DNA of 64,000 nucleotides from Acidobacteriota bacterium. GTDB taxonomy: Bacteria; Acidobacteriota; Thermoanaerobaculia; Multivoradales; Multivoraceae. The position numbers and the translations under genes were made by a program. Numbering within the stretch: position 1 is the first letter of the stretch; every line of letters begins with the position of its first letter. The stretch lies in contig JAPPCR010000023.1 in NCBI GenBank assembly GCA_028875725.1, positions 405,620 through 469,619 of the forward strand. The letters run 5' to 3'. This document shows positions 36,433 through 58,342 of the stretch, piece after piece. Below the pieces are notes generated by a model. It was not told the origin of the DNA. It ran no database searches and was given only the letters and a program-made list of their open reading frames with translations.

Positions 36433-36445
36433 GTCGCTGTTTCTC

Positions 36446-40080: not shown

Positions 40081-41016
40081 ATGCAAGACCACCGATCAAG
40101 ATCCCAGCGGGCGACCACGTCAGAGTCGCACCCGCAGAATCCGGGAGACCAATCCGCCCTTGGTTCCACTGCGCCCTTCAAAGTAGTCGCAGAAACGGTC
40201 TTTCGCCGCTACGGACGCTCCTGGAAGCCAGGGACGGCGGCTGTAAACCGCTCGTACCTCCGAAACCAGATCATGCCGTGGTTCAACCAGCGCCCCATCG
40301 CGGGCATCGCCCACGAGGACGTTCAGCTCTGGTTCTCTTCTCTGAGGTCGACGCCTGCGGCGGCGAATCGAGCGCTGCCCGTCCTCTCGGTGATCATGCG
40401 TCAGGCCGAGATCTACGGTTACCGACCGGAGAACAGCAATCCTTGCTCGGGTATCCGGCGCTATCGGTGCCCTAGTCGGGAGCGGTTCCTTACTCTGCCG
40501 GAAGTTCGGCGCCTTGGCGGAGCGCTGGCTGATCTAGAAGCCTCGGTGCTTCGACCCGCCGCGGCAATCCGTCTGCTGCTCCTGACCGGCTGCCGACAAG
40601 GAGAAATCAGGACTCTCCAATGGGGTGACTACCGAGCAGGCCACCTCTTCCTGCGCGACGGTAAGGCGGGACCCAGGATGGTCTGGCTGTCTTCGCCGGC
40701 GCGCCAGGTGCTGGGCCGCCTTCCGCGCAGCGATCGTTGGGTGTTCCCTGCCCTGCGCCGCCCAGGGCCCATGCGTTCTGACGCGCTTCATCGCTACTGG
40801 CGGGCACTTCGCGAGATGGCGGATCTCCGGGACGTGCGGCTGCACGACCTGCGCCACAGCTACGCGAGCATCGCCCTCCAGCAGGGTGAGACCATTCCAA
40901 CGATCGGCCGCCTCTTGGGGCATCGCGACCCGGTAACGACACTTCGTTACACGCACTTCGCCGACGCCTCGGTCCTTGAGGCGGTCGAGGCCGTGGGCAA
41001 CGTGCTGGGGGTCTGA
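40081..41016 (+). CDS. tyrosine site-specific recombinase (XerC/D-like phage integrase family)
   Basis: C-terminal catalytic box [15 protein letters not shown]...[15 protein letters not shown] (R..HxxR..Y). Confidence 0.8.
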
Positions 41017-42365
41017 TGCTGATGCCGACTTTCCGGGACTTCGTGCAGGGCCCCTGGAGGGAAGCCTGCTACGAGCGCTGCAAAGCGTCCACAAAGGCGC
41101 GGGTGGACAGCGCCCTGGGCGCACAGCTGTTGCCGACCTTCGGCCACTTACCCCTGGACGCGATAACGGCGGGAGATGTACACGCTTGGTTCGATCGCTA
41201 CAGCGAGAGAGCGCCCGGCGGCGCAAACCGCACGCTCGATGTCCTACGACAGATCCTGAACCACGCTGTCGCGTGTGGGCACCAAGACGCTAACCCCGCC
41301 CGTGGCATCGTGCGCAACGCGAGCCCGCTACGTACCCGCTTCCTCTCGCGAACCGAGGTTGCGCGCTTGCGCGCGGCACTCAGTGCGCATCGGGGGCGAG
41401 AGTCCGGCCGGCAACAGGCCGACATCATTCGCCTGCTGCTGCTTACAGGTTGCAGAAAGGGAGAGCTCGTTGGGCTCAGGTGGTCGGAGGTGAGCGAGGG
41501 CACACTGCGGCTACATGACAGCAAGACGGGCCCACGCTTGGTGTACCTGAACGACCAAGCGCAGCGCATACTCAGCCGCCAGCCGCGCAACGGCAGCCCG
41601 TTCGTCTTCCCATCGCTTTCCGACTCGTCGAAGCCCCGCTCCTCGGAGTTGTCCCTTTGGCGCAAGGTAAGGCGGGAAGCCCGGATCGAGGAGGTGCGTC
41701 TACACGATCTCCGTCACACGTTCGCGAGCCACGCTGTCATGCAGGGAGTGCCCTTGCCGGTCGTGTCGCGGCTGCTCGGCCACAGCCGCTCTCGAATGAG
41801 CCTTCGCTACGCACATGCGGGTGACCGGGAAACCGAGGCCGCCGCCGAGCGCATCGGCACCGCCCTTGCCTCGGTTCTTGGCGTGCCGACCGACGAGGAG
41901 AAAGTCGGGCTCGTGCCGGGGGAGAAGATTGGAACGTCTATCAGAACGGAGGCTCCCAATGCGCGCCCGGGTCGCGCGGCGACCGCTGCTAGGATCTCCT
42001 CCCCACTCGCACGCCGACAAGACCGCGCTGCCAACACGCTGGCTAGGGCGGTCGAGCGGAAGTGGCCGCACGACTCCCGCATGCACTCCTTGATCGAATC
42101 CCACCGGACTGAGATACGAGCCGTTGCTGGCCGCCACGGTTTCGAGGACGTGCGCGTGTTCGGCTCCATGGCCCGAGGGGACGCAGACGAGGGGAGCGAC
42201 GTGGATCTGCTCGTGACCCTGCCGAAGGGCCAGAGCGGCTTGGCCCTGGGAGCGTTGCTGATGGACGTCCAGGACCTGTTGGGGCGGCGAGTAGACGTGG
42301 TAACGGAGCGTAGTCTGCACCCCGATCTTCGGCACCGGATTCTGGAAGAAGCCCAGATCCTGTGA
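41016..42365 (+). CDS. tyrosine recombinase (second tandem copy) read-through fused to an MntA-type nucleotidyltransferase
   Basis: HDLRHTFASHAVMQG...LLGHSRSRMSLRYAH integrase box. No stop before the MNT domain. TGATG overlap with the upstream integrase. Confidence 0.65.
   Translation: MLMPTFRDFVQGPWREACYERCKASTKARVDSALGAQLLPTFGHLPLDAITAGDVHAWFDRYSERAPGGANRTLDVLRQILNHAVACGHQDANPARGIVRNASPLRTRFLSRTEVARLRAALSAHRGRESGRQQADIIRLLLLTGCRKGELVGLRWSEVSEGTLRLHDSKTGPRLVYLNDQAQRILSRQPRNGSPFVFPSLSDSSKPRSSELSLWRKVRREARIEEVRLHDLRHTFASHAVMQGVPLPVVSRLLGHSRSRMSLRYAHAGDRETEAAAERIGTALASVLGVPTDEEKVGLVPGEKIGTSIRTEAPNARPGRAATAARISSPLARRQDRAANTLARAVERKWPHDSRMHSLIESHRTEIRAVAGRHGFEDVRVFGSMARGDADEGSDVDLLVTLPKGQSGLALGALLMDVQDLLGRRVDVVTERSLHPDLRHRILEEAQIL
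42081..42365 (+). CDS. mntA: MntA-like minimal nucleotidyltransferase antitoxin (nested in-frame in the integrase ORF)
   Basis: GSMARGDADEGSDVDLLV is the GS-x9-13-DxD NTase motif. Internal ATG at 42081. 94 aa. Followed by hepT with a 4-nt overlap. Confidence 0.6.
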   Translation: MHSLIESHRTEIRAVAGRHGFEDVRVFGSMARGDADEGSDVDLLVTLPKGQSGLALGALLMDVQDLLGRRVDVVTERSLHPDLRHRILEEAQIL

Positions 42366-42721
42366 AGGCGGACAGGGGGACCGACCTGGTGCTCCTAGAG
42401 CACATCCGCGACCGCATCTCGCGCATCGGGGAGTACACCGGCGGCGATAGCTCGAAGTTCTTCGGTTCGACTCTCGTTCAGGATGCCGTAGTACGGAACC
42501 TGCAGACCATTGCCGAGTCGACCCAGCGGCTCAGTGAGACTCTCCGGGCCACGGAGCCGGAGATCCCTTGGCGCGCCATCGCGGGCTTCCGCAACGTTCT
42601 TGTGCACGACTACTTCGGAATCGACGTTGAGGCCGTGTGGACGGTCGTTGAACAGGATCTTCCGTCATTGGCGGCGGCCGTCGAACGCATGGCAGCCCTT
42701 GCTGCCGGGACGGCCCGCTAG
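42362..42721 (+). CDS. hepT: HepT-like HEPN toxin (DUF86)
   Basis: RNVLVHDY Rx4-6H HEPN motif. 119 aa. Coupled to the MNT domain. Confidence 0.75.
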   Translation: MKADRGTDLVLLEHIRDRISRIGEYTGGDSSKFFGSTLVQDAVVRNLQTIAESTQRLSETLRATEPEIPWRAIAGFRNVLVHDYFGIDVEAVWTVVEQDLPSLAAAVERMAALAAGTAR

Positions 42722-42852: not shown

Positions 42853-45849
42853 ATGGAGTTGCGTAAGAAGCTGATCGAGGTGGCGTTGCCGTTGGATGCA
42901 ATCAACGCGGCTTCAGCGAGGGAGAAGTCGATTCGGCACGGACATCCGTCGACCTTGCACCTGTGGTGGGCTCGAAGGCCGTTGGCCGCCGCTCGGGCGG
43001 TCATCTTCGCGCAGATGGTGGACGATCCGTCGGAGTACGTCGACGTGCTGCTGTCGGACCCGGCTAAGAAGCGAGCCGTGCATGGAGAGTTGAAGAAGCG
43101 CCGCGCGAAGGCAAGGTCAAGTGTCGGCACGGACTCCGGCGCTTCGGACGATCGGCAGGCTCTGGCCGATGTCGCAGCGGAGCTTGAACGTGAGCGGCTG
43201 TTCGGGATTCTCAGGGAGCTCGTGAAGTGGGAGAACACGACCAATGAAGAGCTGCTGGACCAGGCCACGACCGAGATCTGGCGGAGCTGGCGGCGCGCCT
43301 GCGCCGAGAACGCCGACCACCCGCACGCGAAGGAACTGTTCGACCGTCACAAGCTCCCCGCCTTCCACGATCCCTTCGCCGGGGGCGGAGCATTGCCGCT
43401 CGAAGCGCAACGGCTGGGTCTGGAGGCGCATTCCAGCGACCTGAACCCGGTAGCGGTCTTGATCAACAAGGCAATGATCGAGATTCCGCCGATGTTTGGC
43501 GGTCGGGAGCCGGTGAATCTGGAGTCTCGGAAGGAGCCAGCCGTCGTAGCTCGGCGGTGGCGCGGCGCGCAGGGCCTGGCCGAGGACGTCCGCTACTACG
43601 GTCGTTGGATGCGGGACGAAGCTCAGAGGCGGGTCGGCCATCTCTATCCGCAGGTTGAGGTTACCCCTGCGATGGTCCGGGAGCGCTCCGACCTGAAGCA
43701 GTACGAGGGCCTGCGTTTGACCGTGATCGCTTGGCTCTGGGCGCGTACCGTGAAGAGCCCGAATCCGGCATTTGCCAACGTGAACGTGCCACTCGTCTCG
43801 ACGTTCATGTTGTCAACGAAGAGGGGCAAGGAGGCGTATGTCGAGCCGGTGATTCAGGGCCGTGCCTACCGGTTCGAGGTCCGGGCGGGGCAGCCACCAG
43901 ACGTGGCGACCGCGAAGCAAGGTACAACGGCAGGGAAACGACGAGCGTTTCGGTGCCTTATGTCCGGGCTTCCCGGCACTCCTGTCTCTTACGAGCACAT
44001 TCGCGCACAAGGGCGAGCAGGCGCCATGGCTGAACGTCTAATGGCCATCGTGGCCGAGGGTGACCGAGAGCGTGTCTACCTCAGCCCAACGCCAGAGCAC
44101 GAAGGCGTAGCGGGCGCCATCGCTGCGTCCTGGAAGCCCGACATGCCACTACCGGACAACCCGAGGGACTTCAAGACTCCAAACTACGGACTAACGTCCT
44201 TCGGCGATCTCTTCACTCCGCGTCAACTCGTGGCCTTGACGACCTTCTCCGACTTGGTGGGGGAGGCAACGGAGCGCGTTCGCCTCGACGCGGCGGCCGC
44301 CGGTCTTTCCGACGACGGCCGACCACTGCGCGACGGCGGCACCGGTGCGACCGCGTATGCCGAGGCGGTAGGGGTGTATCTGGCGTTTGCAGTGGACTAC
44401 GCTTCGAACTACTGGTCGACCATCGCTACACCCGCAGAAGGCTTCATCCGTGGCACGTTCGCACGGCAAGCCCTTCCGATGACATGGGACTACGCCGAGG
44501 CTCCTCCCTTTGGAGCGACTAGCGGTAACTGGCTTGCGGGGGTGGAGTGGATCTCGAAGGCGCTGGATTCCCTGCCAGGGGCGACGTCCACGCAAACCGG
44601 TTGCGCGGTCCAGGCTGATGCAGCGCGGCAGACTATTGCGCGTCAGGCCCTCGTCTCCACAGACCCTCCCTACTACGACAACATCGGCTATGCGGACCTG
44701 TCGGATTACTTCTACGTCTGGCTCCGCCGCTCTCTCAAGTCGGTCTTTCCCGAGCTGTTCGCCACGCTGGCGGTTCCGAAGGCCGAGGAGCTTGTTGCCA
44801 CGCCCTATCGTCACGGGAGCAAGGCAGCTGCTGAGTCGTTCTTCCTTGAGGGCATGACAGAGGCGATTGGGCGGCTCGCAGGGCAAGCGCATTCGGGGTT
44901 TCCGGTCACGATCTACTACGCCTTCAAGCAGTCGGAGAGGAAGGGAAGCATCGGAACGGCTAGCACGGGGTGGGAGACGTTCCTCGGCGCCGTCATCCGA
45001 TCAGGCTTTGCGATCACCGGTACTTGGCCAATACGTACGGAGAGAGGGGCAAGATCGATAAGCATCGGCACCAACGCCCTCGCCTCTAGCATCGTCCTCG
45101 TCTGCCGGCCGCGCCCGGCCGATGCTCCGCTCGCCACTCGTCGTGAGCTTCTGGCCGCACTCCGCGCCCAACTCCCCCACGCTCTTCGCCTTCTTCAATC
45201 CGGCAACGTCGCCCCTGTCGACCTCGCCCAGGCGGCCATCGGCCCCGGCATGGCCGTTTACACACGCTACGCGAAGGTGCTCGACGCATCGGGAGAGGTC
45301 GTGCCGGTCAGGGAAGCGCTCGCGCTGATCAACCAGGTCCTCGATGAAGTGCTGGCCGAGCAGGAAGGCGATTTCGACGCCGACAGCCGATGGGCACTGG
45401 CGTGGTTCGAGCAGCATGGCTTCGCCGAGGGGGACTACGGCGTTGCGGAGACGCTCTCCAAGGCCAAGAACACGGCCGTAGCGGGGATGGTCGAGGCCGG
45501 GATCCTCGACTCCCGCGGCGGAAAGGTCCGCCTGTTGTCGCCCAAGGAGCTACCCGACACCTGGGATCCCATCACGGACGCGCGCCTCACCACCTGGGAG
45601 GCGGTCCACCACCTGATCCGCGTTCTTGAGTCCGACGGCGAAACGGGTGCAGCAGATTTGGTCGCCAAGCTGGGCGGGTTCGCGGATACGGCCCGTGAAC
45701 TCTGCTACCGCCTGTACACGGTGTGCGAACGGAAGAAGCGTGCCGGCGACGCCTTGTCCTACAACGGCCTAGTGCAAAGCTGGCCGGAGATCATGCGACT
45801 GGCCCAATCTCGCGAGCCCGAACCCGAGCCCGAACAGATGGAACTCTGA
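42853..45849 (+). CDS. DUF1156-domain DNA methyltransferase (full length, 998 aa)
   Basis: N-terminal DUF1156 block ([19 protein letters not shown]), a methylase core, and an [28 protein letters not shown]-type catalytic motif (N6-A/N4-C class). AAGGAGA SD. Confidence 0.8.
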   Translation: MELRKKLIEVALPLDAINAASAREKSIRHGHPSTLHLWWARRPLAAARAVIFAQMVDDPSEYVDVLLSDPAKKRAVHGELKKRRAKARSSVGTDSGASDDRQALADVAAELERERLFGILRELVKWENTTNEELLDQATTEIWRSWRRACAENADHPHAKELFDRHKLPAFHDPFAGGGALPLEAQRLGLEAHSSDLNPVAVLINKAMIEIPPMFGGREPVNLESRKEPAVVARRWRGAQGLAEDVRYYGRWMRDEAQRRVGHLYPQVEVTPAMVRERSDLKQYEGLRLTVIAWLWARTVKSPNPAFANVNVPLVSTFMLSTKRGKEAYVEPVIQGRAYRFEVRAGQPPDVATAKQGTTAGKRRAFRCLMSGLPGTPVSYEHIRAQGRAGAMAERLMAIVAEGDRERVYLSPTPEHEGVAGAIAASWKPDMPLPDNPRDFKTPNYGLTSFGDLFTPRQLVALTTFSDLVGEATERVRLDAAAAGLSDDGRPLRDGGTGATAYAEAVGVYLAFAVDYASNYWSTIATPAEGFIRGTFARQALPMTWDYAEAPPFGATSGNWLAGVEWISKALDSLPGATSTQTGCAVQADAARQTIARQALVSTDPPYYDNIGYADLSDYFYVWLRRSLKSVFPELFATLAVPKAEELVATPYRHGSKAAAESFFLEGMTEAIGRLAGQAHSGFPVTIYYAFKQSERKGSIGTASTGWETFLGAVIRSGFAITGTWPIRTERGARSISIGTNALASSIVLVCRPRPADAPLATRRELLAALRAQLPHALRLLQSGNVAPVDLAQAAIGPGMAVYTRYAKVLDASGEVVPVREALALINQVLDEVLAEQEGDFDADSRWALAWFEQHGFAEGDYGVAETLSKAKNTAVAGMVEAGILDSRGGKVRLLSPKELPDTWDPITDARLTTWEAVHHLIRVLESDGETGAADLVAKLGGFADTARELCYRLYTVCERKKRAGDALSYNGLVQSWPEIMRLAQSREPEPEPEQMEL

Positions 45850-45862
45850 CCGCCGTCGTTTC

Positions 45863-46276
45863 GTGGCTCTCGATCTCGACGCGGCAAACCGCCTGCTCAC
45901 TGAACTCCCGGAGGGAGTCCAATTCTCACGACGTCCTGATGGCGCCTGGATGCTCCGCACTCAGTTCGCGTTCCCCGACGGGGACAGGCTTCCCATAACG
46001 GCGACCGAGACGGAAGACGGCTACTTGCGTCTCTCCGACCGCGGCCACACCGTCATGCACGCCAGCTATGACAACGATGTCGACGTGCTCTTTGTGGGAG
46101 AACACCGAACGCGCCTGGAAGAAATCCTCCGCAAAGCCGGCGTCGAACAGCATCATGGCGCTCTCCGCATCGACACACGCGCGAAGGACCTGGCCGACGC
46201 TGTGCTCCGTCTTGGCCAAGCCGCCATGAGCGTCTTCGAACTGGCCAGCGTCCGTCAAGGCCCCCGACCGTCGTAG
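45863..46276 (+). CDS. hypothetical protein (137 aa) between the MTase and the DUF499 gene
   Basis: GTG start 13 nt after the MTase stop. No recognisable motif. May be an accessory protein of the defence module. Confidence 0.35.
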   Translation: MALDLDAANRLLTELPEGVQFSRRPDGAWMLRTQFAFPDGDRLPITATETEDGYLRLSDRGHTVMHASYDNDVDVLFVGEHRTRLEEILRKAGVEQHHGALRIDTRAKDLADAVLRLGQAAMSVFELASVRQGPRPS

Positions 46277-46351
46277 ATGCTGGGCGGAACCCGCGCCGCC
46301 TCGACGCTAAGGCTGTGTCCCAGTGGCTCCCGGGGCGCGGCGACCCTCCGA

Positions 46352-49300
46352 CTACTCCCGCTCGAAACCGTGACTGTTGAACTTCAGCGTTTGGCTGTTC
46401 TCCGTCACGGTGCGGACGACATGGTCCGGCGCCCCTTCCGGTATGTCGGCCTCGATCTCCAAGGTCACCGTCACGTTCGCCCCGACGAGGCCTGAGAGAT
46501 GGGTGATCACTTCCTCTGCGATTCGACTCGCGTCGAGACCGGCGCGAGTCGCGTCGAGCGAGACGCTGCCATGGAAGCGCTTGGGGCCGAGGTCAAGTGA
46601 CGGGATCGGGTCGGGAGTTGGGGGCTCGTCGGAACCGACTGGATCGCCGCCCTTGGGGGGCTGAGGCGCAACTGGTTCTTCTTCCGCGTCAAGCTGCTGC
46701 CGGGCGGCGGCTGGTCTGACCAGAATCCCCGGAGCCGCCGGATCCGTCAGCGGGACAATTTGGCCGGCACGGAGTCCTCGATACCGGCCCAACTCCTCGT
46801 CGAAGCTATCCGCGAAAGCGAACGTGTCTTTCTCCCAGGTCAGCAGCACCACGCCGTCCGCTGCGGCCCCTAGCAACACAGCCGGATCCTGGAGACGCGG
46901 CAGATAGAGATACTGCGCGAAGTCCTCGATGAGCTGCGTTATCGATACATGCTCGCCACGCCACAGCGGAACCCGCTCAAGTTCGATCTTCAGGCGGGTG
47001 CCGGAGAACGTGGAGGCAAGTACGTCGTCGCTCTTCAGACGGTTGGCGGCTCGAACCGCGAGGGCGCCGTGGCCAGAGAGCCGGGTCGTCTCCCAAGACA
47101 CCGGCGCAGCGGGGTCCTTCTGCACCGGCGCGAGCAACCATTGGTACGTCTCGGGCAGCCGGGCCGTGACGGCCTCGGCGGCGGCTCGGCGCTGGGTCTC
47201 CGCCTGCTTGACCTGGTGCGGGGAAAGATCGAGTGCTTCTCGCTCCGCGAGTACGGACTCCCACGCCAAGTCACGGCGAACCGCTTCGTCGAGGTCCTGT
47301 AACCGGGTTTGGTCGGGCGCCAGAAAGACAAGGGTGTTGCGATACAGCCGCGGCGAGGCGCCCCGAGATTCGAGGATGGCTGCAGCGGCTGTTTCCGCGG
47401 GGGATCCCGGTTCCTTCCGGTACCCGTGATCGATGCCGAGGACCACGAGGCGGACCTCACGTTCGTCCGGCACTTCGTGGCCAGACTGTGGAGCCGTGTG
47501 AATGCGGCTGAAGCCGGCGGTCTCTCGCAGGGCCGTGCGCAGACTCGCGACGATCGCCTGCGCAACCTTGTCCGGCTCTCGACGCAACTGCTCGGCGCGG
47601 TCTTCGGCCAGCTTCGTGACGGTAGCCCGCGTGTCGTACCAGTAGCGGCTTCCGTCCTGGTAGAGGTAGGTCGCGTTGGCCGCGAGCCGCCGCAAGGCGT
47701 CCCCGAAGACCGCCGACGACTCCCCAGGAAACACGCAGCCCAGCTTGATTCTGCGGTCCTCGAGGCCGCGCTGGGCTGAGCCCGCACTGGGAGCAGAGCC
47801 CAGGTACACGGTCCGCGCCACGCGCCGGCAGGCGGAGAACTTGCCCAGGTTCGCTACGTCGCCATCGATCCGCTGCGGAAGGGCCTGCTGTCCGTCGACA
47901 TCCTTCTCGATCACGGGAACCCAGTTCTCCGGCAGGTAGCGCGTCAGCTCGAACTGCACCCGTGGATCGTCGATCGAGAGATTGGCCGGCAGGATGAGCG
48001 GGCTGCTGTCGCCCTTTTGCCAGAGGCTGTGGATGACCGCCGCCATCAATCGCAGCACGCCGCGGGTCCGCTGGAAGGTCACCAAGGTCGACCAGTCCGA
48101 GTAGAGGCGGTCGAAGATCTCAGGATGAATGGGATAGGCCGCCTTCAGACGTTGTTCGTAGTCCGCGTTTCGACACTCGGGTGGAAACTCATGTTGCTGG
48201 CCTCGGTAGAGATCGGCAAACGCCCGCGCAACTACATCGCGGTCTGTGAACTGCGCTGAGTCGGCGAAAGGCTCGAACAACCGCCGGCGAACAATCTCGA
48301 ACCCCTCCTCGGCGCTCGCGGGCCGCCAGGACGACTCGATGCGGCCGATCACGTTGCGCAGCCGGTCAAGAGCTTCACGGCCGCGCTGGCCACCTACCTC
48401 GACATCGTCGGCCTGAGTGTGCGGGGAGGCAGAGGTGTCCGATGCTGGCAGGCTGACCACGAGAAGACAGTTGCCGGCCAGCTTCGCGGACTCGGTCAGC
48501 GCCTGCGCGAACGTGAACTGCGTCTCGAAGCTGCCAGCGGGGAGATCGCTCTGATCGTGAAGCTGTCGCGCGTAGGCGACCCACTCGTCAATCAGGATCA
48601 GGCAAGGGCCGTGCTCGACCAGGAGCTTCCGCAGAACATCACCTGGGCTCGTGGCGTGCTCGTCGTCCTTGGCGATGCGGGCATACGCCTCTGCACCACC
48701 GAGTTGCCAAGCGAGTTCACCCCATAGCGTCCTCACGACTGTGCCATCCGGCTTGGTGTCGGGATTGCCGGGCGAGATGCGGTTGCCGACCAGCACGACA
48801 CGCTTGACGGTCGGCAGATCCGGCGCCTCGACCTCCCGCATAACTGCCTCGACACCGGACAGGTCGTTTAAGGGAACGCCAGAACAAAGGTGGTAGAGGG
48901 CGAGCATCGAGTGGGTCTTGCCGCCACCGAAGTTCGTCTGTAGCTGCACTACCGGGTCGCCCCCCAGGCCGGCTAGCCTCTGCACGGCACCAGCCAGCAT
49001 TCTCTTGAGGCTCTCGGTCAGGTATGTGCGGCGGAAGAACTCCACCGGGTCCCGGTACTCCTCGCTCCCTTCGCCAAGATAGGTCTGCCAGAGGTCGGCG
49101 GCAAACTCGGCCTGCTGATAGCGGCCGCTGGCCACGTCCTGGTGCGGCGTCACGACCTGCCGCCACGGCTTGAGGTTCTTGGCTGCGCTCTCGACGGCCA
49201 GGCTCGCCTGTCGCCGCCGTTGACCACGCGCCTGCTCATCGAACCGGACCCGGAGCAGTTCCATCTTCAGCTTGTCGAGTTCGGCCGCCTCCTTTGCGGA

Positions 49301-49666
49301 TACAGCCGTCAGCAAGCGATTCGCCGTGTCGAGCGCCCGGTAGGCGTCGTCGCTGGAGAAGAACTCCTGGTGCGCCCAGCGGTTCCTGTGCCCGCGTAGT
49401 TCGCCCACAAAGCCGCGTTCGGCGGGCCCCAGGACATCCTGGAAGACCATTCTCCAGTTGTCCCACATCAGCTTGAGCAGGGCGGCGACGTCCCACTCCG
49501 TCAGGGGCCGCTTGCGCAGGTTCGGATCGTCGAACCAGTTCAGGACGCCGGCGTCGACACGCTTGTTCTTGATCGCGCGCTTCAGCTCGCGGTCGACGAA
49601 CGGGCCAAGGCCCGCCTTCAGGAGATCGAGCGCCTTACCGACGCGCTCGTGATTCGTTGTGGCCAT
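46352..49666 (-). CDS. DUF499-family P-loop ATPase with N-terminal Swt1-like HEPN domain
   Basis: N-terminus RGHRNRWAHQEF (Rx4H HEPN). Walker A QTNFGGGKTHSM. Walker B-like LILIDEWVAYARQ. 1104 aa. Confidence 0.75.
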   Translation of the reverse strand: MATTNHERVGKALDLLKAGLGPFVDRELKRAIKNKRVDAGVLNWFDDPNLRKRPLTEWDVAALLKLMWDNWRMVFQDVLGPAERGFVGELRGHRNRWAHQEFFSSDDAYRALDTANRLLTAVSAKEAAELDKLKMELLRVRFDEQARGQRRRQASLAVESAAKNLKPWRQVVTPHQDVASGRYQQAEFAADLWQTYLGEGSEEYRDPVEFFRRTYLTESLKRMLAGAVQRLAGLGGDPVVQLQTNFGGGKTHSMLALYHLCSGVPLNDLSGVEAVMREVEAPDLPTVKRVVLVGNRISPGNPDTKPDGTVVRTLWGELAWQLGGAEAYARIAKDDEHATSPGDVLRKLLVEHGPCLILIDEWVAYARQLHDQSDLPAGSFETQFTFAQALTESAKLAGNCLLVVSLPASDTSASPHTQADDVEVGGQRGREALDRLRNVIGRIESSWRPASAEEGFEIVRRRLFEPFADSAQFTDRDVVARAFADLYRGQQHEFPPECRNADYEQRLKAAYPIHPEIFDRLYSDWSTLVTFQRTRGVLRLMAAVIHSLWQKGDSSPLILPANLSIDDPRVQFELTRYLPENWVPVIEKDVDGQQALPQRIDGDVANLGKFSACRRVARTVYLGSAPSAGSAQRGLEDRRIKLGCVFPGESSAVFGDALRRLAANATYLYQDGSRYWYDTRATVTKLAEDRAEQLRREPDKVAQAIVASLRTALRETAGFSRIHTAPQSGHEVPDEREVRLVVLGIDHGYRKEPGSPAETAAAAILESRGASPRLYRNTLVFLAPDQTRLQDLDEAVRRDLAWESVLAEREALDLSPHQVKQAETQRRAAAEAVTARLPETYQWLLAPVQKDPAAPVSWETTRLSGHGALAVRAANRLKSDDVLASTFSGTRLKIELERVPLWRGEHVSITQLIEDFAQYLYLPRLQDPAVLLGAAADGVVLLTWEKDTFAFADSFDEELGRYRGLRAGQIVPLTDPAAPGILVRPAAARQQLDAEEEPVAPQPPKGGDPVGSDEPPTPDPIPSLDLGPKRFHGSVSLDATRAGLDASRIAEEVITHLSGLVGANVTVTLEIEADIPEGAPDHVVRTVTENSQTLKFNSHGFERE

Positions 49667-49730
49667 AAGGGCGCGAGTCTAGTGCCGTCCGGTGTCCAAT
49701 GCACTTGACGCAGACGCAGGGGCGACGCAG

Positions 49731-52700
49731 CTACCGCGGATCCTCGGCCTTGGCGAGGAGGTCGCGCAGGGTGTAGTTGACGCTGGCGGCACCGAAGTCG
49801 GGCTCACGCTGGAACGGCTGTCTCACGTAGCGAACGGGTGGACGATCTCTGCCGTCGAAGAGGACGATGGCGAGGATGAAGTCGTCCGGCTTGTTCAACG
49901 AGTAGAGGATCTCGTTCTTGGTGACCGTGACTGTCGAGGCATCGCTCTCCCGGCCCTTGACTTCAATGAACCGCAGCCTTCCGGTGGCCGGGTCCCTGCT
50001 CTCGATGTCGTAGCCGAGCTTCTCGACCTCACGGTCGACTGGTTTGAAGCCGAGTCCGCGCTCGGTCTCCATCACGAGTCTGCGCGCCTCGGCGGCAGCC
50101 TTCTGCGTATCCCGTCGCTCGACCGTCGGGCTCGGGCCTTCTGACATCGCTTCGATGAGACCGCGGGGCACGACCAGCAGGCCACCGAGTACGAGGGGAG
50201 GTCGGGGAGAGATCTGTCGATCTCGGTTCAGTTCCTGGAATCGCTTCTGGAGACGGCCCTGCAGCATGTCTGCCCGCCGGCGCGCTTCGCCCGAGTTGAG
50301 CCGGGCGCCGGTCTTCCCAGCCTCTTCGGCCTGCTTGAGTTGCGCGGCTCGATGGTCCCAGTGGTTGATCTCCTTGGTCAGACGCTCCTTCACCGCAGCC
50401 TCGGTCTTGGCGATCAACTCGAGTCGAGCATCCCGAATCTCCTTGAGATGTTCGGGGACGACGTTCGCGACCGCGTACGCCTGGGCTTTCTGCTCGAGGT
50501 CCCGGTCGATCCACTGGCACTCGGGCCGGTCGAGAAGTTCATCAACCGTCGGCTCGCCGTCATCCAGCGGCCGATAGTCGAGATACGGCGCGTAGTGCAG
50601 ATGGCGCGCGACTCCACCGGCGTTGAGTTCGACGTAGAGAACTCGCTTGGAGATGACCTGCCGGTCACCGCTACGGGTGGTGTTGCCGTCTTGCAGGGAG
50701 TGCTCGATGGAGAACAGCACGCGTGGTTCCGTACCGTCGTCTCTCTCATCCACGAGGACCGCACCACGCCGCAGGAGGTCGCGGTGGCGTTCAAGCGTCA
50801 GATCGATGACTGAGTCGAGCAGCGGATGGCCCGGACAGACGAAGTTCGCAAGCGGCTGGTCGGGTGGCGCCACAAGCGGCTTCTCGAACACGATCCGTTC
50901 GTATCGCGGCAGTACCGGAGCGCCAATCCCGATCATTCGATCGCGGTGCCGGACAGACGCTGGCACGTTCGTCACCTCGAAGCGGCCCGGCTCCCTTTGC
51001 CAGAGTTTGCCTCCTAGCCGCTTGAACGCCTCCTGGAAGAACGACCGGATGTAGTGAGGCTGCAGGCGTCGCGCTTCGGCACGCTCCATGTCCTCCCGGA
51101 CCCGCTGCACGCGAGAAGCGTCCATCGCGTCGTGCGCCAACTGGCGCTCTTCCAGCAACTCCTGCAGCGCATCGTGGTCGAGGGCGTGGTCCACGGCGGT
51201 GTCGAGCCGGGCGCGCACTTCCGGCTGTTCCCCATAGCGGATCGCTCGAAGCAGCAGGTCGCGCAAGGGACGCCCTTCAAACTCCAACTTGCCTAGTACG
51301 TCGAAGACCTGCCCACCGAGCGCCTCTCGCGCCTGGTCCAGCTTCTCCAGCAACCGCCGGTAGACATCGCCCTCGCGGGTGTCCTGAGCGACCAGATTCC
51401 AGAGGTGGCAAACCTCCGTCTGACCAATCCGATGGATGCGGCCGAAGCGCTGCTCCAGGCGATTCGGGTTCCACGGAAGGTCGTAGTTGACCATCAGATG
51501 CGCCCGTTGCAGATTGATCCCCTCGCCAGCGGCATCGGTCGCCAGCAGCACCTGGACCTCCGGGTCGTACTGGAAGGCCGCTTGGACCTCCAGGCGCTTC
51601 TCGCGGCCGACGCCACCGTGGATCACGACCACCGAGCCTTCACGTCCCAGGAGGGTGCTGATCCGCTCGTACAGGTAACTCAGCGTGTCGCGATGCTCCG
51701 TGAAGAGCACGAGCTTCTGGCCCGGCGAGGACAGAGGCGGCGGTACTGGACCCGACCCGCGGGGCGTCGTCCGTTCACCGATCTGATCCGCGCGGCCCGA
51801 GGGTGTGAAGATCGCGGCCAGCAGGGCGGCCAGTTCTCGCCATTTCGTGTCCTGGCCGGCGCGGCGCACCTTCAGAGCCAGCGCCTCGAGTTCCTTCAGA
51901 GTCTCGATCTCAGCCTTCAGTTCTGCAATCGACTGAGCCGCCGTGGCCTGGTCGAGAATCTGCGCCTCGGCGTCTTCAGCTTCCTCCTCGGGTGCGTCGG
52001 CGAGATCCTCGAGGTCGTCCTCGTCGAGTTCAGGGGCCAGAAACCTCATGACAAGGGAGTGCTGGCCTCCGCGCTGGAGAACCTCGAGTTCGCGGAGGCG
52101 GCTCTGAAGTCGCTCGCGCCGGCGTCGCAAGGACCGGTAGATGGCCTCGGGCGAAGAAGCCAGTCGCCTCTGCAGGATGGTCAGAGCGAAGCCAACGGTG
52201 CCGGCTCGTTTCGCGTTTGCAAGTGCCTCAGCCCGGTTGAACTCCTCGCGCACGTAGGCGGTGACCGCGGCATAGAGACGGGCTTCCTCGTCGGACAGCC
52301 GGAAGGGCACGGTGTAGGCGATCCGCTCGGGGAACAGCGGCTTGCCGTCGAACTTGAGCAGCCGCTCCTTGACCATACGCCGCATCAGGTCGGAAACGTC
52401 CGTGGTGTGAACGCCGTCGCGGAAGCGGCCCTCAAAGCGGTCGCCGTCAAGCAACGCCATGAACAGCTGGAAGTCCGTCTCCTTGCCGTTGTGCGGCGTC
52501 GCCGTCATCAGCAGGAAGTGGCGAGTCAGGCCGGAGAGGAGTTGGCCCAGCCGGTAGCGCTTCGTGTACTTGATCTCGTTGCTGAAGTACGTCGCCGAGA
52601 ATTTGTGCGCCTCGTCACAGACCACAAGGTCCCACTCGGCCTCCGGCACCTTCAGCTTCTGCTGAACGTCTTCGTCTCGCGACAGCTTGTCCAGGCGGGC

Positions 52701-53306
52701 AATGACGAGGTTCGCTTCGAGGAACCAGTTCCGCGTACGAGCGGCTTCCAACTTGTCGTTCGTCAGGATCTCGAACGGGAGATGGAACCGGCTGTACAGC
52801 TCGTCCTGCCACTGCTCGGCCAGACCGCCAGGGCAAACCACAAGGCAGCGCTCCAGGTCGCCCCGCGCGATCAGTTCCTTGATCAGTAGACCCGCCATGA
52901 TCGTCTTGCCTGCCCCCGGGTCGTCGGCGAGGAGGAAGCGGAGGGGCTGTCGCGGAAGCATCGACTCGTAGACGGCGGTGATCTGATGCGGCAACGGATC
53001 GACGACGGAGGTGTGGACCGCCAACACCCGGTCGAACAGATGCGCGAGCCGGATGCGCTGCGCCTCGGAAACCAACCGAAACAGGGCGCCGTCCCCGTCG
53101 AAAGACCACGCTCGACCCTCCTCGACAAGCTCCAGCCTGGGCTCGTCTTCACGGTAGAGAAGCTCGGCGGCGACATCGCCGTCCAGCTTCTTGTAGGTCA
53201 GCTCGATCGCCTCCGAACCGTGCCAACGGACGTTGACGACCTCGACCGGCTCGTCAGGGTGAACGCCACGGACGGTGCAGCGTGGCTGGAGGTCTTCAAG
53301 GCGCAC
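49731..53306 (-). CDS. SNF2/DEAD-like superfamily-2 helicase with C-terminal PD-(D/E)xK nuclease-like domain
   Basis: Motif I LLADDPGAGKT. Motif II VVCDEAHK. Helicase-C block ATDAAGEGINLQ. C-terminal GYDIESRD...RFIEVKGRE, a D...ExK pattern. GTG start. Confidence 0.75.
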   Translation of the reverse strand: MRLEDLQPRCTVRGVHPDEPVEVVNVRWHGSEAIELTYKKLDGDVAAELLYREDEPRLELVEEGRAWSFDGDGALFRLVSEAQRIRLAHLFDRVLAVHTSVVDPLPHQITAVYESMLPRQPLRFLLADDPGAGKTIMAGLLIKELIARGDLERCLVVCPGGLAEQWQDELYSRFHLPFEILTNDKLEAARTRNWFLEANLVIARLDKLSRDEDVQQKLKVPEAEWDLVVCDEAHKFSATYFSNEIKYTKRYRLGQLLSGLTRHFLLMTATPHNGKETDFQLFMALLDGDRFEGRFRDGVHTTDVSDLMRRMVKERLLKFDGKPLFPERIAYTVPFRLSDEEARLYAAVTAYVREEFNRAEALANAKRAGTVGFALTILQRRLASSPEAIYRSLRRRRERLQSRLRELEVLQRGGQHSLVMRFLAPELDEDDLEDLADAPEEEAEDAEAQILDQATAAQSIAELKAEIETLKELEALALKVRRAGQDTKWRELAALLAAIFTPSGRADQIGERTTPRGSGPVPPPLSSPGQKLVLFTEHRDTLSYLYERISTLLGREGSVVVIHGGVGREKRLEVQAAFQYDPEVQVLLATDAAGEGINLQRAHLMVNYDLPWNPNRLEQRFGRIHRIGQTEVCHLWNLVAQDTREGDVYRRLLEKLDQAREALGGQVFDVLGKLEFEGRPLRDLLLRAIRYGEQPEVRARLDTAVDHALDHDALQELLEERQLAHDAMDASRVQRVREDMERAEARRLQPHYIRSFFQEAFKRLGGKLWQREPGRFEVTNVPASVRHRDRMIGIGAPVLPRYERIVFEKPLVAPPDQPLANFVCPGHPLLDSVIDLTLERHRDLLRRGAVLVDERDDGTEPRVLFSIEHSLQDGNTTRSGDRQVISKRVLYVELNAGGVARHLHYAPYLDYRPLDDGEPTVDELLDRPECQWIDRDLEQKAQAYAVANVVPEHLKEIRDARLELIAKTEAAVKERLTKEINHWDHRAAQLKQAEEAGKTGARLNSGEARRRADMLQGRLQKRFQELNRDRQISPRPPLVLGGLLVVPRGLIEAMSEGPSPTVERRDTQKAAAEARRLVMETERGLGFKPVDREVEKLGYDIESRDPATGRLRFIEVKGRESDASTVTVTKNEILYSLNKPDDFILAIVLFDGRDRPPVRYVRQPFQREPDFGAASVNYTLRDLLAKAEDPR

Positions 53307-53520
53307 CGGCGGACGGTACCACTGTGGGCCGGGCTTCCAATCAGTCGATAGGCCTGGCCTGAGGCTTCGAACACCAAAAGCGAATCGAGACTACCCGCGC
53401 CCGTATCGCCGCCCCACCCTGGCTGCTACTGGCGGGATGCCAACGAGAGCCCCGAGGGTGCCTCCGCCTTCCTCCGATGGCGGTCGAGGCCGCACGGTTT
53501 CAACGATCGACTTGTCTCTC

Positions 53521-54612
53521 CTAGACGTCGTCGCTGACCCTCCAAAGCCGGGGCCACCAAGCGTCGTCGTGTCCGAGCTTCGACAGCTGCACCTTGATGA
53601 CTGCGCGGAGCAGGAACTCGGCTGTGGCAAAGAACGAGCCGGCGTAGGCGGAGTTCGGACCGGAGTACATCAGTTCCGGCACCCTACCCTCATGGATGAT
53701 CGTGTTCCGAGCTTTGCCGAACTCCATGAACCAGTGCTCCAGGTCGGTGATGAGTGTGGACTGAGCGTGACCCCACCGGTCCTTCCAGTGCCGCGGGTGA
53801 ACAGGCTCTTCCTCCGGCGACCAAACCAAGATCTCAGAGTCCTCACGCGTTGTGTCCGGCAATGCCTCGAACATCTCCCGGAGCCAGCGGGCGCTCTTCC
53901 AGTTGTTGCTCGTGCCTGTCAGCGCTTCAAAGGCTATCTTCAAGTACACGAGCCGCTCCGCGTACTCTACGGTTGAAGTGTTCCGCCAGGCTCTGGCGAA
54001 CCAGTCGACAGCGACTCGAAGCGCATCGGAACCACGACTCGCGCCCGGAAACCGCAGTGATCCCAGAACTGCCTCGTAGATGCCAGTCAGAATCAGAGGA
54101 TCCGGGCTGTAAGCAAAGGAAGGCATGTGCAGGTCGACTGGTGGGCTTAGGACCAGTCCGCGATCACTGCCACTGGGAGCGACGGCGCGCGTTTCCACCA
54201 AGAAGCCGGTGCTCGTTATGACGCGTCCCTGTTCCAGGTCAATAGGCCACGCGTGTAAGTCCGCGTTGTCGGCCGTCACCATGGCCCAGCCGTGCTCGCG
54301 GTTATCGGGGCGGCTCCGTGGGTTGCCGTCAAGGAATGCGAAGACCAGGGAGAGTTGGAGGGCCCCCACCTCTTCCGGCGACGCCGCTTCACCGTCTAGT
54401 GACCGCCCTTCCCTGCATAGAATTGCCGGGTTTCTAATCGGCTTGCTGTCTGTTCCAACGAACTTGCTCAAGAAGGAGAGGGCCTGACGCTTGAACAGGG
54501 GATCGGCCCAGCGCTCCTGGAAGCACTCCTGTGGTCCCACTTCCCAGCCGGCGAACGTGACAGGCTCGTCCATTCGAAGGTAGGGGCAGAACAGCAGAAC
54601 AGGATGTGACAC
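53521..54612 (-). CDS. hypothetical protein with a possible HEPN-type Rx4H motif
   Basis: 363-aa ORF in a low-GC patch. KARNTIIHEG matches Rx4-6H. GTG start with AAGGA SD. No other recognisable domain. Confidence 0.4.
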   Translation of the reverse strand: MSHPVLLFCPYLRMDEPVTFAGWEVGPQECFQERWADPLFKRQALSFLSKFVGTDSKPIRNPAILCREGRSLDGEAASPEEVGALQLSLVFAFLDGNPRSRPDNREHGWAMVTADNADLHAWPIDLEQGRVITSTGFLVETRAVAPSGSDRGLVLSPPVDLHMPSFAYSPDPLILTGIYEAVLGSLRFPGASRGSDALRVAVDWFARAWRNTSTVEYAERLVYLKIAFEALTGTSNNWKSARWLREMFEALPDTTREDSEILVWSPEEEPVHPRHWKDRWGHAQSTLITDLEHWFMEFGKARNTIIHEGRVPELMYSGPNSAYAGSFFATAEFLLRAVIKVQLSKLGHDDAWWPRLWRVSDDV

Positions 54613-55151
54613 TTCTGGTCCTTGGTCGGTGGTGAAGCGTGAGGCAATCGCAAGTAGAGATCAAGTCCGCCGAAATGCTAGTCGGTACCGGCTCAAAGAC
54701 CGCCCCCTGTCCCGGTAGGCGCGGGTGCCTCCTGAGTGTGACTGCGGCTAAGTCGATACCGTCCACGGGGTGGCATAAGGGACGATCTTCGGCCGCCCCG
54801 TACCTGCTGGAACGCGTACGGTGGCCGAACCAACGATCCGCAATCGCAGTGGCGGCTTCCCCCTCTACACCTGCCTGTCAGTAACGCGCTGTAGGCAACG
54901 ACGCCGGCTCCTTAGCAGGAGGCTCCGGAAAGTGGCATCGAGGACCGCCATTCAATGGTCCTCGCAGTACCAGCCGCGGAGCCGAAGAAGCTCGCGCGGT
55001 GGCTCGGAGATTCCCTGCCAGCCGCTCCCCTTGACCGCCCACAGGCACCGGGCCGCTTCTCCGAGCGGTACGTCGTCGAGCAGCTCAAAGCCGCGAGACG
55101 GTTCCGTGTAGTCTCGCCCAAGACGTGGGACACGAGAGGGGACACCCCACC

Positions 55152-58240: not shown

Positions 58241-58342
<102 letters not shown>

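Follow-up and report, generated by a model that had tools for sequence, protein, structure and literature searches.

A Hma anti-phage locus whose methyltransferase gene is probably built as a recombinase-driven invertible shufflon

Type I restriction-modification systems can vary their specificity through hsdS shufflons, such as the pneumococcal SpnD39III ivr locus with CreX and the hsd locus of Mycoplasma pulmonis, in which a linked tyrosine recombinase shuffles two recognition modules, set apart by conserved repeat blocks, into several specificities. These shufflons act on a separate S subunit, whereas in the locus described here the predicted recognition modules lie within the methyltransferase polypeptide of a non-classical restriction-modification-like system. 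The Hma system was named by Payne in 2021 (PMC8565338) and is the same as the Type-1 BR (DUF499-centred BREX-related) system of Rakesh and Krishnan 2026 (PMC12839542), who report a HEPN-DUF499 fusion in 1370 of 2446 taxa and a helicase-nuclease fusion in 79%, and who credit Anantharaman et al. 2013 with first noting the neighbourhood of HEPN-DUF499, methyltransferase and helicase. HmaA defends against T4 via nickase activity; hmaA alone defends, and no effect of HmaB on T4 was seen (Liu et al. 2024, PMC11232893). Payne's 2024 curation includes only loci with one copy per gene, all on one strand, the 2026 BR survey (PMC12839542) mentions neither a recombinase nor an inversion, and we found no description in the literature of a recombinase or inversion switch of the Hma methylase. 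Programmed inversions are known, however, for BREX-1 PglX in Lacticaseibacillus rhamnosus, class 1 DISARM DrmMI and Type IIG enzymes (Milman et al. 2023, PMC9881135).

The window analysed here, the whole 64-kb stretch of DNA, carries the three Hma genes:

42853..45849, plus strand: hmaB, full-length DUF1156 N6-adenine methyltransferase (PADLOC HmaB, Pfam, motifs)
46352..49666, minus strand: hmaC, DUF499 STAND/AAA+ ATPase with an N-terminal Swt1-type HEPN domain at nt 49298-49636 (PADLOC HmaC, Pfam, motifs)
49731..53306, minus strand: hmaA, Swi2/Snf2 helicase with a C-terminal NOV_C/DUF3883 PD-(D/E)xK nuclease at nt 49827-50084 (PADLOC HmaA, Pfam, motifs)

Full-length matches to PADLOC profiles identify HmaB (1488 bits, aa 4-990), HmaC (1119 bits, aa 164-1102) and HmaA (1659 bits, full length). 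Pfam adds DUF1156 (95 bits) and MethyltransfD12 in HmaB, HEPN_Swt1 (112 bits, aa 11-123) and DUF499 (90 bits) in HmaC, and SNF2-rel_dom, Helicase_C and NOV_C/DUF3883 (69 bits) in HmaA. The motifs, read directly from the sequence, are FAGGG (aa 175) and DPPY (aa 604) in HmaB, R94-NRWA-H99, GGGKT and LILIDE in HmaC, and GAGKT, DEAH and a D...EVK in the nuclease domain of HmaA. Judged by these matches, the trio at 42853-53306 is an ordinary copy of the known Hma (Type-1 BREX-related) anti-phage system, and we take hmaB at 42853..45849 to be the expressed allele in the present assembly. A first-pass annotation had already described a three-gene restriction-modification-like defence module with diagnostic motifs in every component, a HEPN head on the ATPase and a nuclease on the helicase, all of which is borne out. 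Its view that the variant is uncharacterised does not stand, since the trio is Hma, the HEPN fusion of HmaC is present in 69 of 69 relatives, and experiments on HmaA have been published (PMC11232893). The synteny it expected of the trio was found (complete hmaA/hmaB/hmaC in 61 of 79 related loci in a neighbourhood census). The locus resembles other Hma systems in its three proteins, in both domain fusions and in the small gene embedded among the system genes, which is common in Hma. It differs in having a second, inverted copy of hmaB, with two recombinases between it and the first, and in that the genes are not co-directional:

37480..39878, minus strand: hmaB', alternative 5' methyltransferase cassette (Pfam DUF1156, 93 bits)
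40081..41016, plus strand: Int1, tyrosine recombinase, candidate invertase (Pfam Phage_integrase)
41016..41960, plus strand: Int2, second paralogous tyrosine recombinase
42078..42365, plus strand: MntA-type nucleotidyltransferase antitoxin (Pfam NTP_transf_2, NCBIfam MntA_antitoxin)
42362..42721, plus strand: HepT RNase toxin, inside the predicted invertible core (Pfam HepT-like, 94 bits; NCBIfam HepT_toxin, 62.6 bits, above cut-off)
45273..45849, plus strand: fixed 3' end of hmaB (C-terminal ~190 aa), not part of the invertible segment; common to all predicted alleles

The 5' 2.4 kb of hmaB thus exists in two diverged head-to-head copies, only one of which is joined to the fixed 3' end, with the two recombinases and HepT/MntA in between. 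HmaB' is encoded by a DUF1156 ORF at 37047-40181 (minus strand), with a likely GTG start at 39878. It spans aa 1 to ~807 with motif I and DPPY intact, and is 71% identical to HmaB over 817 aa, the homology ending at 37480 / 45272. The first-pass annotation rightly placed integrases and HepT/MntA next to the module, but it read them as mere neighbours and overlooked this second gene. The catalytic residues are conserved in both recombinases (R, HxxR, H and Y in Int1), and Int2 is ~40% identical to Int1. The Int2 ORF reads without a stop into MntA (motif GSMARGD...SDVDLLV), which is in frame but has its own Met; the same single-ORF call occurs in three related loci, L086, L087 and L091. As in type VII HepT/MntA systems, the HepT RNase has its nucleotidyltransferase directly upstream and overlapping; unlike in those systems, MntA shares one ORF with Int2 and the pair sits within a putatively invertible defence cassette.

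Exact inverted repeats of 77, 50, 70 and 39 nt lie at the homology edge and in mid-gene, where they bracket two variable segments:

37480..37640: IRc left arm (C-terminal inverted repeat), exact blocks 37480-37556 (77 nt) and 37591-37640 (50 nt)
45112..45272: IRc right arm, exact blocks 45112-45161 and 45196-45272
38371..38483: IRm left arm (mid-gene inverted repeat), exact blocks of 70 nt and 39 nt
44269..44381: IRm right arm
43873..44187, plus strand: V1, variable segment (aa 341-445) in the predicted target-recognition insert
44383..44652, plus strand: V2, variable segment (aa 511-600), the most variable part of the whole family

The repeat blocks are homogenised at synonymous sites (dS 0.03-0.14 inside, 0.9-2.2 outside). 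For IRc, dS is 0.135 over aa 751-807 versus 0.9-1.1 in the flanks, and for IRm it is 0.03 over aa 473-510 versus 2.2 at the adjacent, equally protein-conserved aa 446-472. Between hmaB and hmaB', no DNA similarity was detected over 43881-44185 (V1) or 44381-44654 (V2). In all 11 shufflon-type loci (10 relatives and the window), it is in these two segments that paired cassettes diverge most, with identities of 38-78% in V1 and 26-41% in V2. Family conservation falls to 0.37-0.48 at aa 551-600, and the full-length copy of L087 has a third sequence type in V2. V1 and V2 are predicted to belong to the target-recognition domain, an assignment that draws only on motif order and published domain analysis; no solved structure related to HmaB was found, and its structure model has a pLDDT of 49.

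This arrangement is recurrent. Of 79 independent loci, 10 share the order hmaB'-Int1-Int2-hmaB (their annotations include Acidobacteriota, Spirochaetia, Longimicrobiales and 'Candidatus Azophilus'), and it is never found without the recombinases (Fisher p = 7.6e-12). Int1 orthologues (59-69% identity) lie beside hmaB' cassettes in 11 of 79 loci, always adjoined by Int2 orthologues (68-73%). Likewise, the four Int1-family members that we sampled all had an Int2 paralogue among DUF1156 genes beside HEPN-DUF499, three with a divergent DUF1156 pair. Exact repeats occupy the same two gene positions in most of the 10 relative loci. Opposite states are found as well. L086 and L087 (82-89% nt identity, with the same Int2-MntA and HepT) have the core inverted relative to the window, with the breakpoint at 37480 | 45273, at the 77-nt repeat, and the Int1-side cassette joined to the fixed 3' end. 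L090 and L091 have a flank in common but opposite core orientations. Among assemblies submitted as whole chromosomes, L005 and L015 contrast with L016 in the same way, and L007 with L003. The L086 contig stops at the equivalent of 44383, the IRm edge; short-read contig breaks are expected at any repeat and have no evidential value. The first-pass annotation had taken the convergent methyltransferase to mean a modification gene plus a restriction operon. That reading fails: 56 of 61 complete Hma loci are co-directional and all five exceptions are shufflon loci carrying the recombinase cassette, so that the convergent orientation of hmaB appears to be a by-product of the invertible methyltransferase unit.

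Together, we consider it likely that the locus is a complete Hma system whose specificity subunit is built as a recombinase-driven invertible shufflon; Int1 and Int2 most likely flip the DNA-recognition modules of the methylase. The identity of the core system comes from sequence, and its mechanism we infer from published work. HmaB, an alpha-class N6-adenine methyltransferase with a putative role in methylation and self-protection, would mark host DNA at the motif that its target-recognition insert recognises. HmaC, a STAND/ORC-like ATPase, would assemble or activate the complex on unmodified DNA, and its HEPN RNase head may serve as a last resort. HmaA, an Snf2 translocase with a PD-(D/E)xK nickase, would attack the invader. 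The XerC/XerD-like pair would recombine the exact inverted repeats at aa ~473-510 and ~754-807, flipping the 37.5-45.3 kb core or its inner part to give up to four in-frame HmaB alleles differing in V1 and V2; the three predicted chimeras, C1, C2 and C3, are all intact in-frame ORFs of 991, 991 and 998 aa. Switching would change the DNA motif counted as 'self', and so could be a hedge against phages whose DNA already bears the current modification or has none of its sites. HepT/MntA probably stabilises the cassette or acts as an embedded defence.

The systems of Milman et al. (PMC9881135) share the inverted partial copies, the exact repeats around a variable recognition region, the adjacent recombinase and the constant termini. 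Here, in contrast, the methyltransferase is of the alpha-class DUF1156 family, there are two paralogous recombinases rather than one, toxin-antitoxin genes lie inside the core, and the whole 5' 80% of the gene is duplicated including its start, which gives each cassette an upstream region of its own. Switching within a population, which long reads demonstrated in those systems, is a prediction here. No switching was seen within the source strain across five assemblies; the protein collection lists each of the two parental HmaB proteins on 5 contigs and does not contain the exact predicted chimera C1. The window shufflon could be slow or inactive, because its copies are older than those of some relatives and have drifted further apart (79% nt identity over the N-terminal part).

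Inversion could also be RecA-mediated instead of site-specific. One such model is that the inversions are real but arise by general homologous recombination or gene conversion, Int1 and Int2 belonging to a selfish mobile cassette that is stabilised by its toxin-antitoxin genes, contains part of an hmaB and targets hmaB genes, with no dedicated invertase. The repeats, 50-900 nt across the loci, would suffice for RecA; the core of related loci holds toxin-antitoxin modules of several families, as in selfish elements; and no recombinase core site could be defined in the repeats across shufflon loci, where extra synonymous conservation is only modest. Nonetheless, we regard this model as unlikely. 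Simple integration would leave direct copies, whereas these are inverted in every case, and the recombinases lie between them in every shufflon locus except L014, where they are just outside. Moreover, four loci without Int1/Int2 (L011, L034, L039 and L042) have duplicated or fragmentary hmaB in direct orientation, and the two recombinase lineages are each conserved as a pair, like XerC/XerD.

Still less probable, in our view, is a plain Hma system with a decaying duplicate, in which hmaB' is a pseudogene of an older copy disrupted by integrase and toxin-antitoxin insertion, the repeats are a remnant of shared ancestry and the recombinases serve only to mobilise the island. Such decay would fit the missing C-terminal ~190 aa, the divergence of the copies (dS 0.9), the single state in five of five assemblies and the presence of integrases and toxin-antitoxin pairs, which are typical island cargo. 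It would also fit the run of the hmaB' ORF to 37047 through non-coding-like sequence (codon-position GC 0.71/0.67/0.60), although the cassette itself is coding-like (0.66/0.50/0.77) and keeps 2.4 kb of intact frame with its catalytic motifs. Furthermore, purifying selection acts on hmaB': compared with the full-length counterpart in L086, it has a dN/dS of 0.19 overall, falling to 0.08-0.11 in conserved segments, which matches expressed copies (the fixed 3' end has 0.074 versus L086). Leftover homology also sits poorly with a dS drop confined to the repeat blocks, a truncation point (aa ~807) and repeat positions recurring in 10 independent loci, the perfect association with one orthologous recombinase pair, and the exact reciprocal arrangement in close relatives; a separate P4-type integrase already serves the island.

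The reading of the first-pass annotation, an uncharacterised five-gene restriction-modification-like module with a separately oriented modification gene, deserves almost no credence: its domains are all present, a 363-aa ORF (ORF363, 53521-54612) is a genuine HEPN-fold protein and a 137-aa ORF is conserved in the two closest relatives, but the trio is known (PMC12839542) and the census, which found both ORFs in 0 of 79 related Hma loci, refutes the module and rules them out as components.

ORF363 has no Pfam match, is absent also from L086 and L087, and has relatives that stand alone in other genomic contexts. The other small ORF and two features beyond the module are:

45863..46276, plus strand: DUF1828 ORF (137 aa), between hmaB and hmaC (Pfam DUF1828, 56 bits)
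55125-56315: P4-type integrase
58241-58332, minus strand: tRNA-Ser(GCT)

The DUF1828 ORF, which has a partial PDC-M24B match, is by its distribution a lineage-specific accessory gene outside the Hma core. L086 and L087 both keep it at 79-81% aa identity: 131 of 137 aa align without a stop in L086, and the 137 aa of L087 include one in-frame stop six codons before the end. All five ORFs of the first-pass annotation are present where it placed them. Its island 'ending at a tRNA' is only loosely so: the tRNA exists, but a search found no att-like repeat of its end. The lower-GC, mobile context that it described is confirmed by the integrases and by a GC content of ~0.64 over 35-55 kb versus 0.68-0.71 outside in the window profile.

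The interest of this locus lies in an invertible methyltransferase cassette that the first-pass annotation overlooked, rather than in the three-gene defence module to which it drew attention; its observations were confirmed, and its interpretation is supported in part. The three open reading frames it singled out are present with the domains and motifs claimed for them, and they sit beside a second, inverted DUF1156 gene and a pair of recombinase genes:

37047-40181, minus strand: second DUF1156 gene, head-to-head with hmaB; its hmaB-like part, hmaB', runs from a likely GTG start at 39878 to 37480
40081-41016: Int1, tyrosine recombinase
41016 to ~41960: Int2, tyrosine recombinase, the first part of a plus-strand ORF (41016-42365) that continues into an MntA module
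42078-42721: toxin-antitoxin genes (MntA, HepT)
42853-45849, plus strand: hmaB, with DUF1156 and a D12-class methyltransferase signature
45863-46276, plus strand: 137-aa ORF, following hmaB, with Pfam DUF1828
46352-49666, minus strand: hmaC, with HEPN_Swt1 at aa 11-123 and DUF499
49731-53306, minus strand: hmaA, with SNF2 (SNF2-rel_dom), Helicase_C and the NOV_C (DUF3883) nuclease domain
53521-54612: 363-aa ORF (ORF363)

The trio belongs to the Hma system. The three proteins have full-length PADLOC matches to HmaA (PDLC00659, 1659 bits, aa 1-1190 of 1191), HmaB (PDLC00660, 1488 bits, aa 4-990) and HmaC (PDLC00662, 1119 bits, aa 164-1102), and the expected motifs can be read in each: FAGGG and DPPY in HmaB; RNRWAH, the P-loop GGGKT and the Walker B motif LILIDE in HmaC; GAGKT, DEAH and D...EVK in HmaA. 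All three genes of the PADLOC definition are present and clustered, with hmaB, a single 137-aa ORF, hmaC and hmaA inside 10.5 kb. They occupy both strands, and the single-strand rule is one study's curation filter that does not define Hma. The locus likewise has the content of Type-1 BREX-related (BR), the new name given to Hma-type loci by a 2026 survey (PMC12839542), namely a DUF499 ATPase, a DUF1156-headed N6-methyltransferase and a Swi2/Snf2 helicase with an active C-terminal restriction endonuclease; Pfam scans covering the region's larger candidate ORFs gave no match to DUF3780, the Type-2 marker. The NCBIfam anti-phage trio of DUF1156, DUF499 and phospholipase-D (PLD) proteins (NF042963, NF042962, NF042964) was rejected as an identity, since scores of 100, 174 and 161 bits fall far under the equivalog cut-offs of 1000, 1200 and 1100 and that trio is a different family branch with a PLD nuclease.

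The name Hma dates from 2021 and was based on 1,638 loci from 26 phyla (PMC8565338), and the neighbourhood of HEPN-DUF499, methyltransferase and helicase was first noted by Anantharaman et al. 2013, according to PMC12839542. The DUF499 ATPase of Type-1 BR is often HEPN-fused (Rakesh and Krishnan 2026, PMC12839542), with the fusion in 1370 of 2446 taxa and a helicase-endonuclease fusion in 79% (PMC12839542). Within Hma, only HmaA of Halomonas meridiana has been tested experimentally: alone it protects E. coli from T4, and its NOV_C domain is a metal-dependent nickase required for defence (PMC11232893), whereas HmaB had no visible effect on T4 (Liu et al. 2024, PMC11232893). No demonstration of methylation by HmaB was found in the literature. 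In our census of 79 loci recovered with HmaB (80 were kept of more than 594 confirmed HmaB matches), the HEPN domain is fused to HmaC in all 69 loci with the N-terminus in range, and the trio is syntenic, all three genes being seen in 61; 56 of these 61 are co-directional and 50 are ordered A-B-C. Thus, the supposedly uncharacterised variant represents a known system in its commonest form; the trio already has a name, has been characterised in part and, taken by itself, is ordinary.

hmaB' and HmaB share 71% amino acid identity across 817 aa, and the similarity ends abruptly at 37480/45272, where a perfect 77-nt inverted repeat has its edge. Three more exact inverted blocks (50, 70 and 39 nt) are located at aa ~754-770 and ~473-510, and no DNA similarity between the two copies is detectable in 43881-44185 or 44381-44654. 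The arrangement is that of a shufflon, with inverted copies of part of a gene in which exact repeats bracket diverged segments and the frame is kept: exchange at one of the two repeats or at both is predicted to yield genes of 991, 991 and 998 aa, all of them intact and in frame. Past 37480 the hmaB' ORF shows codon-position GC of the non-coding kind. We considered a 219-aa ORF (36446-37105) as a hidden alternative C-terminus of hmaB', but this ORF has no relation to the HmaB C-terminus and is a conserved neighbouring gene.

An inverted, truncated copy could also be a dead remnant, a reading that we reject because hmaB' keeps an open frame of ~2.4 kb, both catalytic motifs and a low dN/dS. Compared with the full-length counterpart in L086, one of the two closest relatives of this locus, hmaB' has a dN/dS of 0.19 as a whole and 0.08-0.11 over conserved segments, indistinguishable from expressed-copy comparisons; the stored cassette is under purifying selection. 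Between hmaB and hmaB', dS is ~0.9-2.2 throughout except in two repeat blocks (0.03 and 0.135), and at aa 446-472, next to a repeat, the protein is equally conserved but synonymous sites are saturated. This collapse of dS in the repeats alone indicates that repeat identity is maintained by recombination and not by protein constraint. In a search across loci for a recombinase core site, the excess of synonymous conservation at the repeats was modest in shufflon relative to non-shufflon loci (0.66 versus 0.51 and 0.75 versus 0.64), over a general background excess.

The same architecture recurs. Ten of the 79 census loci carry a truncated inverted hmaB' (usually aa ~3-807) and orthologues of both recombinases (59-69% identity for Int1, 68-73% for Int2) directly upstream of the full-length gene, and their record titles name Acidobacteriota and subgroups, Spirochaetia, Longimicrobiales and 'Candidatus Azophilus'. 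In 68 other census loci no inverted hmaB copy was found (0/68), and inverted copy and recombinases are strongly associated (Fisher p = 7.6e-12). Most shufflon loci have exact inverted repeats at aa ~450-510 and ~745-815. All five non-co-directional Hma loci are of the shufflon type, which accounts for the convergent methyltransferase that the first-pass annotation had taken for part of the system's design. Int1 and Int2 form two lineages, each conserved in its own right, with ~40% identity between them, and each retains R, HxxR, H and Y; in the window, the linked pair lies between the hmaB copies with its catalytic residues intact, and it resembles a XerC/XerD pair. The Int1 family comprises more than 120 clusters at at least 61% identity, and all four sampled members occur with an Int2 paralogue among DUF1156 genes beside HEPN-DUF499. 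Of these four, L090, L091 and L093 have a divergent DUF1156 pair, and a single copy was called in L092.

An eleventh recombinase locus, L027, has Int1 and Int2 without a detectable second hmaB copy and a seemingly truncated hmaC (C[4-693]); its order is hmaA, HEPN, hmaC, Int2, Int1, hmaB, with the two recombinases on the opposite strand to the rest, and it is possibly a degenerate shufflon. Isolated fragments covering the first ~40-70 codons of hmaB (HmaB aa ~3-74) stand upstream of the full gene in L016 (7041-7256), L039, L042, L064 and L011, and might be traces left when cassettes were exchanged or lost. Additional copies of hmaB, directly oriented and without recombinases, occur in L011 (4446-12856; tandem copies, one apparently split) and in L034, where a second full hmaB follows hmaC.

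Related genomes hold the reciprocal arrangements. With a predicted chimera protein as the query, a search of 5.8 billion protein clusters returned two full-length proteins nearer the predicted chimera (86% and 82%) than window HmaB (76%). The loci that encode them, L086 and L087, have this element too, HepT and the single Int2-MntA ORF included, at 82-89% nucleotide identity. With respect to hmaC and hmaA their core is flipped, and it is the Int1-side cassette that continues into the fixed 3' end; the breakpoint against the window, 37480 | 45273, is the edge of the 77-nt repeat. L090 and L091 have an ETF/TetR flank in common and opposite core orientations, and opposite orientations are also found in whole-chromosome assemblies (L005 and L015 versus L016; L007 versus L003). 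Alternative orientations therefore exist among related genomes, with breakpoints at repeats. Consensus assemblies of the source organism hold one state, with each parental protein recorded on 5 contigs. The exact chimera C1 (hmaB' joined to the fixed end, 45273-45849) is absent from the 5.8-billion-cluster collection, where only this organism's two parental proteins occur, and an IUPAC-pattern scan for parental and chimeric junctions of the C-terminal repeat gave 0 matches in JGI metagenome contigs, a collection without this organism. Three Logan contigs that end in or at the repeats (L081, L084, L085) were not counted in favour of inversion, since any repeat makes a k=31 assembly graph branch.

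The differences between paired cassettes are concentrated in two segments. In all 11 shufflon-type loci (the window and 10 relatives), the paired cassettes differ most at aa 341-445 (V1; 38-78% identity) and aa 511-600 (V2; 26-41%), against 64-100% identity in the segments that flank them; in the HmaB family as a whole, variability is highest at aa 551-600. In alpha-class methyltransferases, the target-recognition domain sits between motif I and motif IV. In HmaB, V1 and V2 fall in the stretch bounded by motif I at aa 175 and motif IV at aa 604, the interval in which the 2026 survey places the target-recognition insert of the DUF1156 methyltransferase (PMC12839542). Judging from this placement, aa ~341-445 and ~511-600 probably read the DNA motif. 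An AlphaFold2 model of HmaB from 40 homologues was unusable (pLDDT 49, pTM 0.29), and no solved relative turned up when PDB sequences were searched with a profile of the HmaB alignment.

Toxin-antitoxin genes of different families recur within the invertible core, where they separate the recombinases from the hmaB cassettes, as HepT/MntA, PIN/FitA-like or PIN/Phd genes (L091 8320-9000 and 11317-11673; L092 8127-8767; L093 8049-8707 and 11207-12466). Int2 shares one ORF with an antitoxin domain in the window, L086 (2009-3358), L087 (2898-4160), L091 (10091-11320) and L092 (9889-11061); the domain is an MntA nucleotidyltransferase in the first four and Phd/YefM in L092. In the window, the two parts are joined by an A/R-rich linker of ~90 aa, and MntA has its own Met; read through, the ORF would give a 449-aa fusion protein.

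These results make a model likely in which Int1 and Int2 would catalyse inversion, and V1 and V2 would set the methylation motif; the exchange may instead be RecA-mediated. If BREX PglX and Type I/IIG enzymes are a guide, HmaB specificity might govern both modification and restriction. Switching could act as a bet-hedge against phages that are modified or depleted of sites, and HmaC's HEPN head may serve as a back-up RNase, as proposed by the 2026 survey (PMC12839542). In its fullest form, the model would give Hma/BR an undescribed specificity switch: a heteromeric XerC/XerD-like invertase flipping two HmaB target-recognition modules between a live and a stored cassette, yielding up to four methylation/restriction specificities, with the Int2-antitoxin fusion tying switching or cassette retention to toxin-antitoxin signalling in phage attack. 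That every part of this holds together we regard as quite improbable, the Int2-antitoxin coupling being the most speculative part.

Recombinase-driven specificity switching is known for Type I hsdS, and the hmaB cassette would extend it to another widespread defence family (DUF1156/Hma). Programmed inversions described for defence methyltransferases in PMC9881135 include BREX PglX, DISARM DrmMI and Type IIG enzymes; compared with these and with hsdS, the Hma shufflon is distinctive in its conserved two-recombinase module and resident toxin-antitoxin genes. We found no mention of programmed inversion of DUF1156 or Hma in the article texts searched, and the text of the 2026 BR survey (PMC12839542) does not contain the words recombinase, inversion, integrase or shufflon. 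A 2024 embedded-gene study retained only loci with a single copy of each hma gene on one strand, and filters of this kind systematically hide shufflon-type loci. The invertible cassette is strong natural evidence that HmaB sequence specificity matters to Hma function. It supports a proposed methylation-based self/non-self model (in the published experiments, hmaA alone defended), and natural HmaB allele pairs offer material for methylome mapping and retargeting.

The island setting stands in part. GC is ~0.64 in the 35-55 kb block and 0.68-0.71 in the flanks, in line with the proposed lower-GC island. The tRNA said to end it is present (tRNA-Ser, 58241-58332, ~1.9 kb from a P4-type integrase), but no att-like direct repeats of the tRNA-Ser or tRNA-Gln ends were found as boundaries. 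A promoter and terminator scan gave one promoter-like and one terminator-like site, not above shuffled controls. The gene calls also include a ParE/ParD toxin-antitoxin pair at ~30101-30647 (minus strand), beside tRNA-Gln (30831-30904) and upstream of the lower-GC block. Beside the hmaB' tail, at 35386-37105 (minus strand), an MBL-fold gene (348 aa) adjoins the 219-aa ORF, which is hydrophobic and possibly membrane-spanning; both occupy the same position in L090, where the 219-aa ORF is 57% identical, so the left edge of the mobile region is not at hmaB'.

Two accessory ORFs had been proposed as parts of the system, a role at odds with the absence of homologues of either from all 79 census loci. 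The DUF1828 ORF is nonetheless a real gene, a lineage-specific embedded gene of a kind common in Hma. It is kept at 79-81% amino acid identity in the two closest relatives, with 131 of 137 aa aligned and no stop in L086 and one in-frame stop six codons before the end in L087; gene callers missed it in both and called a 75-aa opposite-strand ORF instead. ORF363, which has no Pfam match and is absent from L086 and L087, is an independent neighbour and not a fourth Hma component. Its family is conserved and unannotated, numbers more than 200 members and keeps R302, N303 and H307 invariant; the relatives are solitary, beside ThsB-TIR genes and Type III restriction-modification or among transposases.

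Other small genes were noted in related loci. A longer DUF1828 protein (259 aa) adjoins hmaC in L091 (868-1647), and the PADLOC candidate PDC-M24B has the DUF1828 domain in common with the window ORF. Directly upstream of HEPN-hmaC, two canonical Hma loci have a HepT-like ORF (L013 7399-7602; L059 15360-15566). In L087, an AAA_15/AAA_21 (ABC-type) ATPase and a 185-aa partner (8829-10810) are embedded between hmaB and hmaC, where the window has the DUF1828 ORF only, and this pair fits the reported 'embedding hotspot' in Hma.
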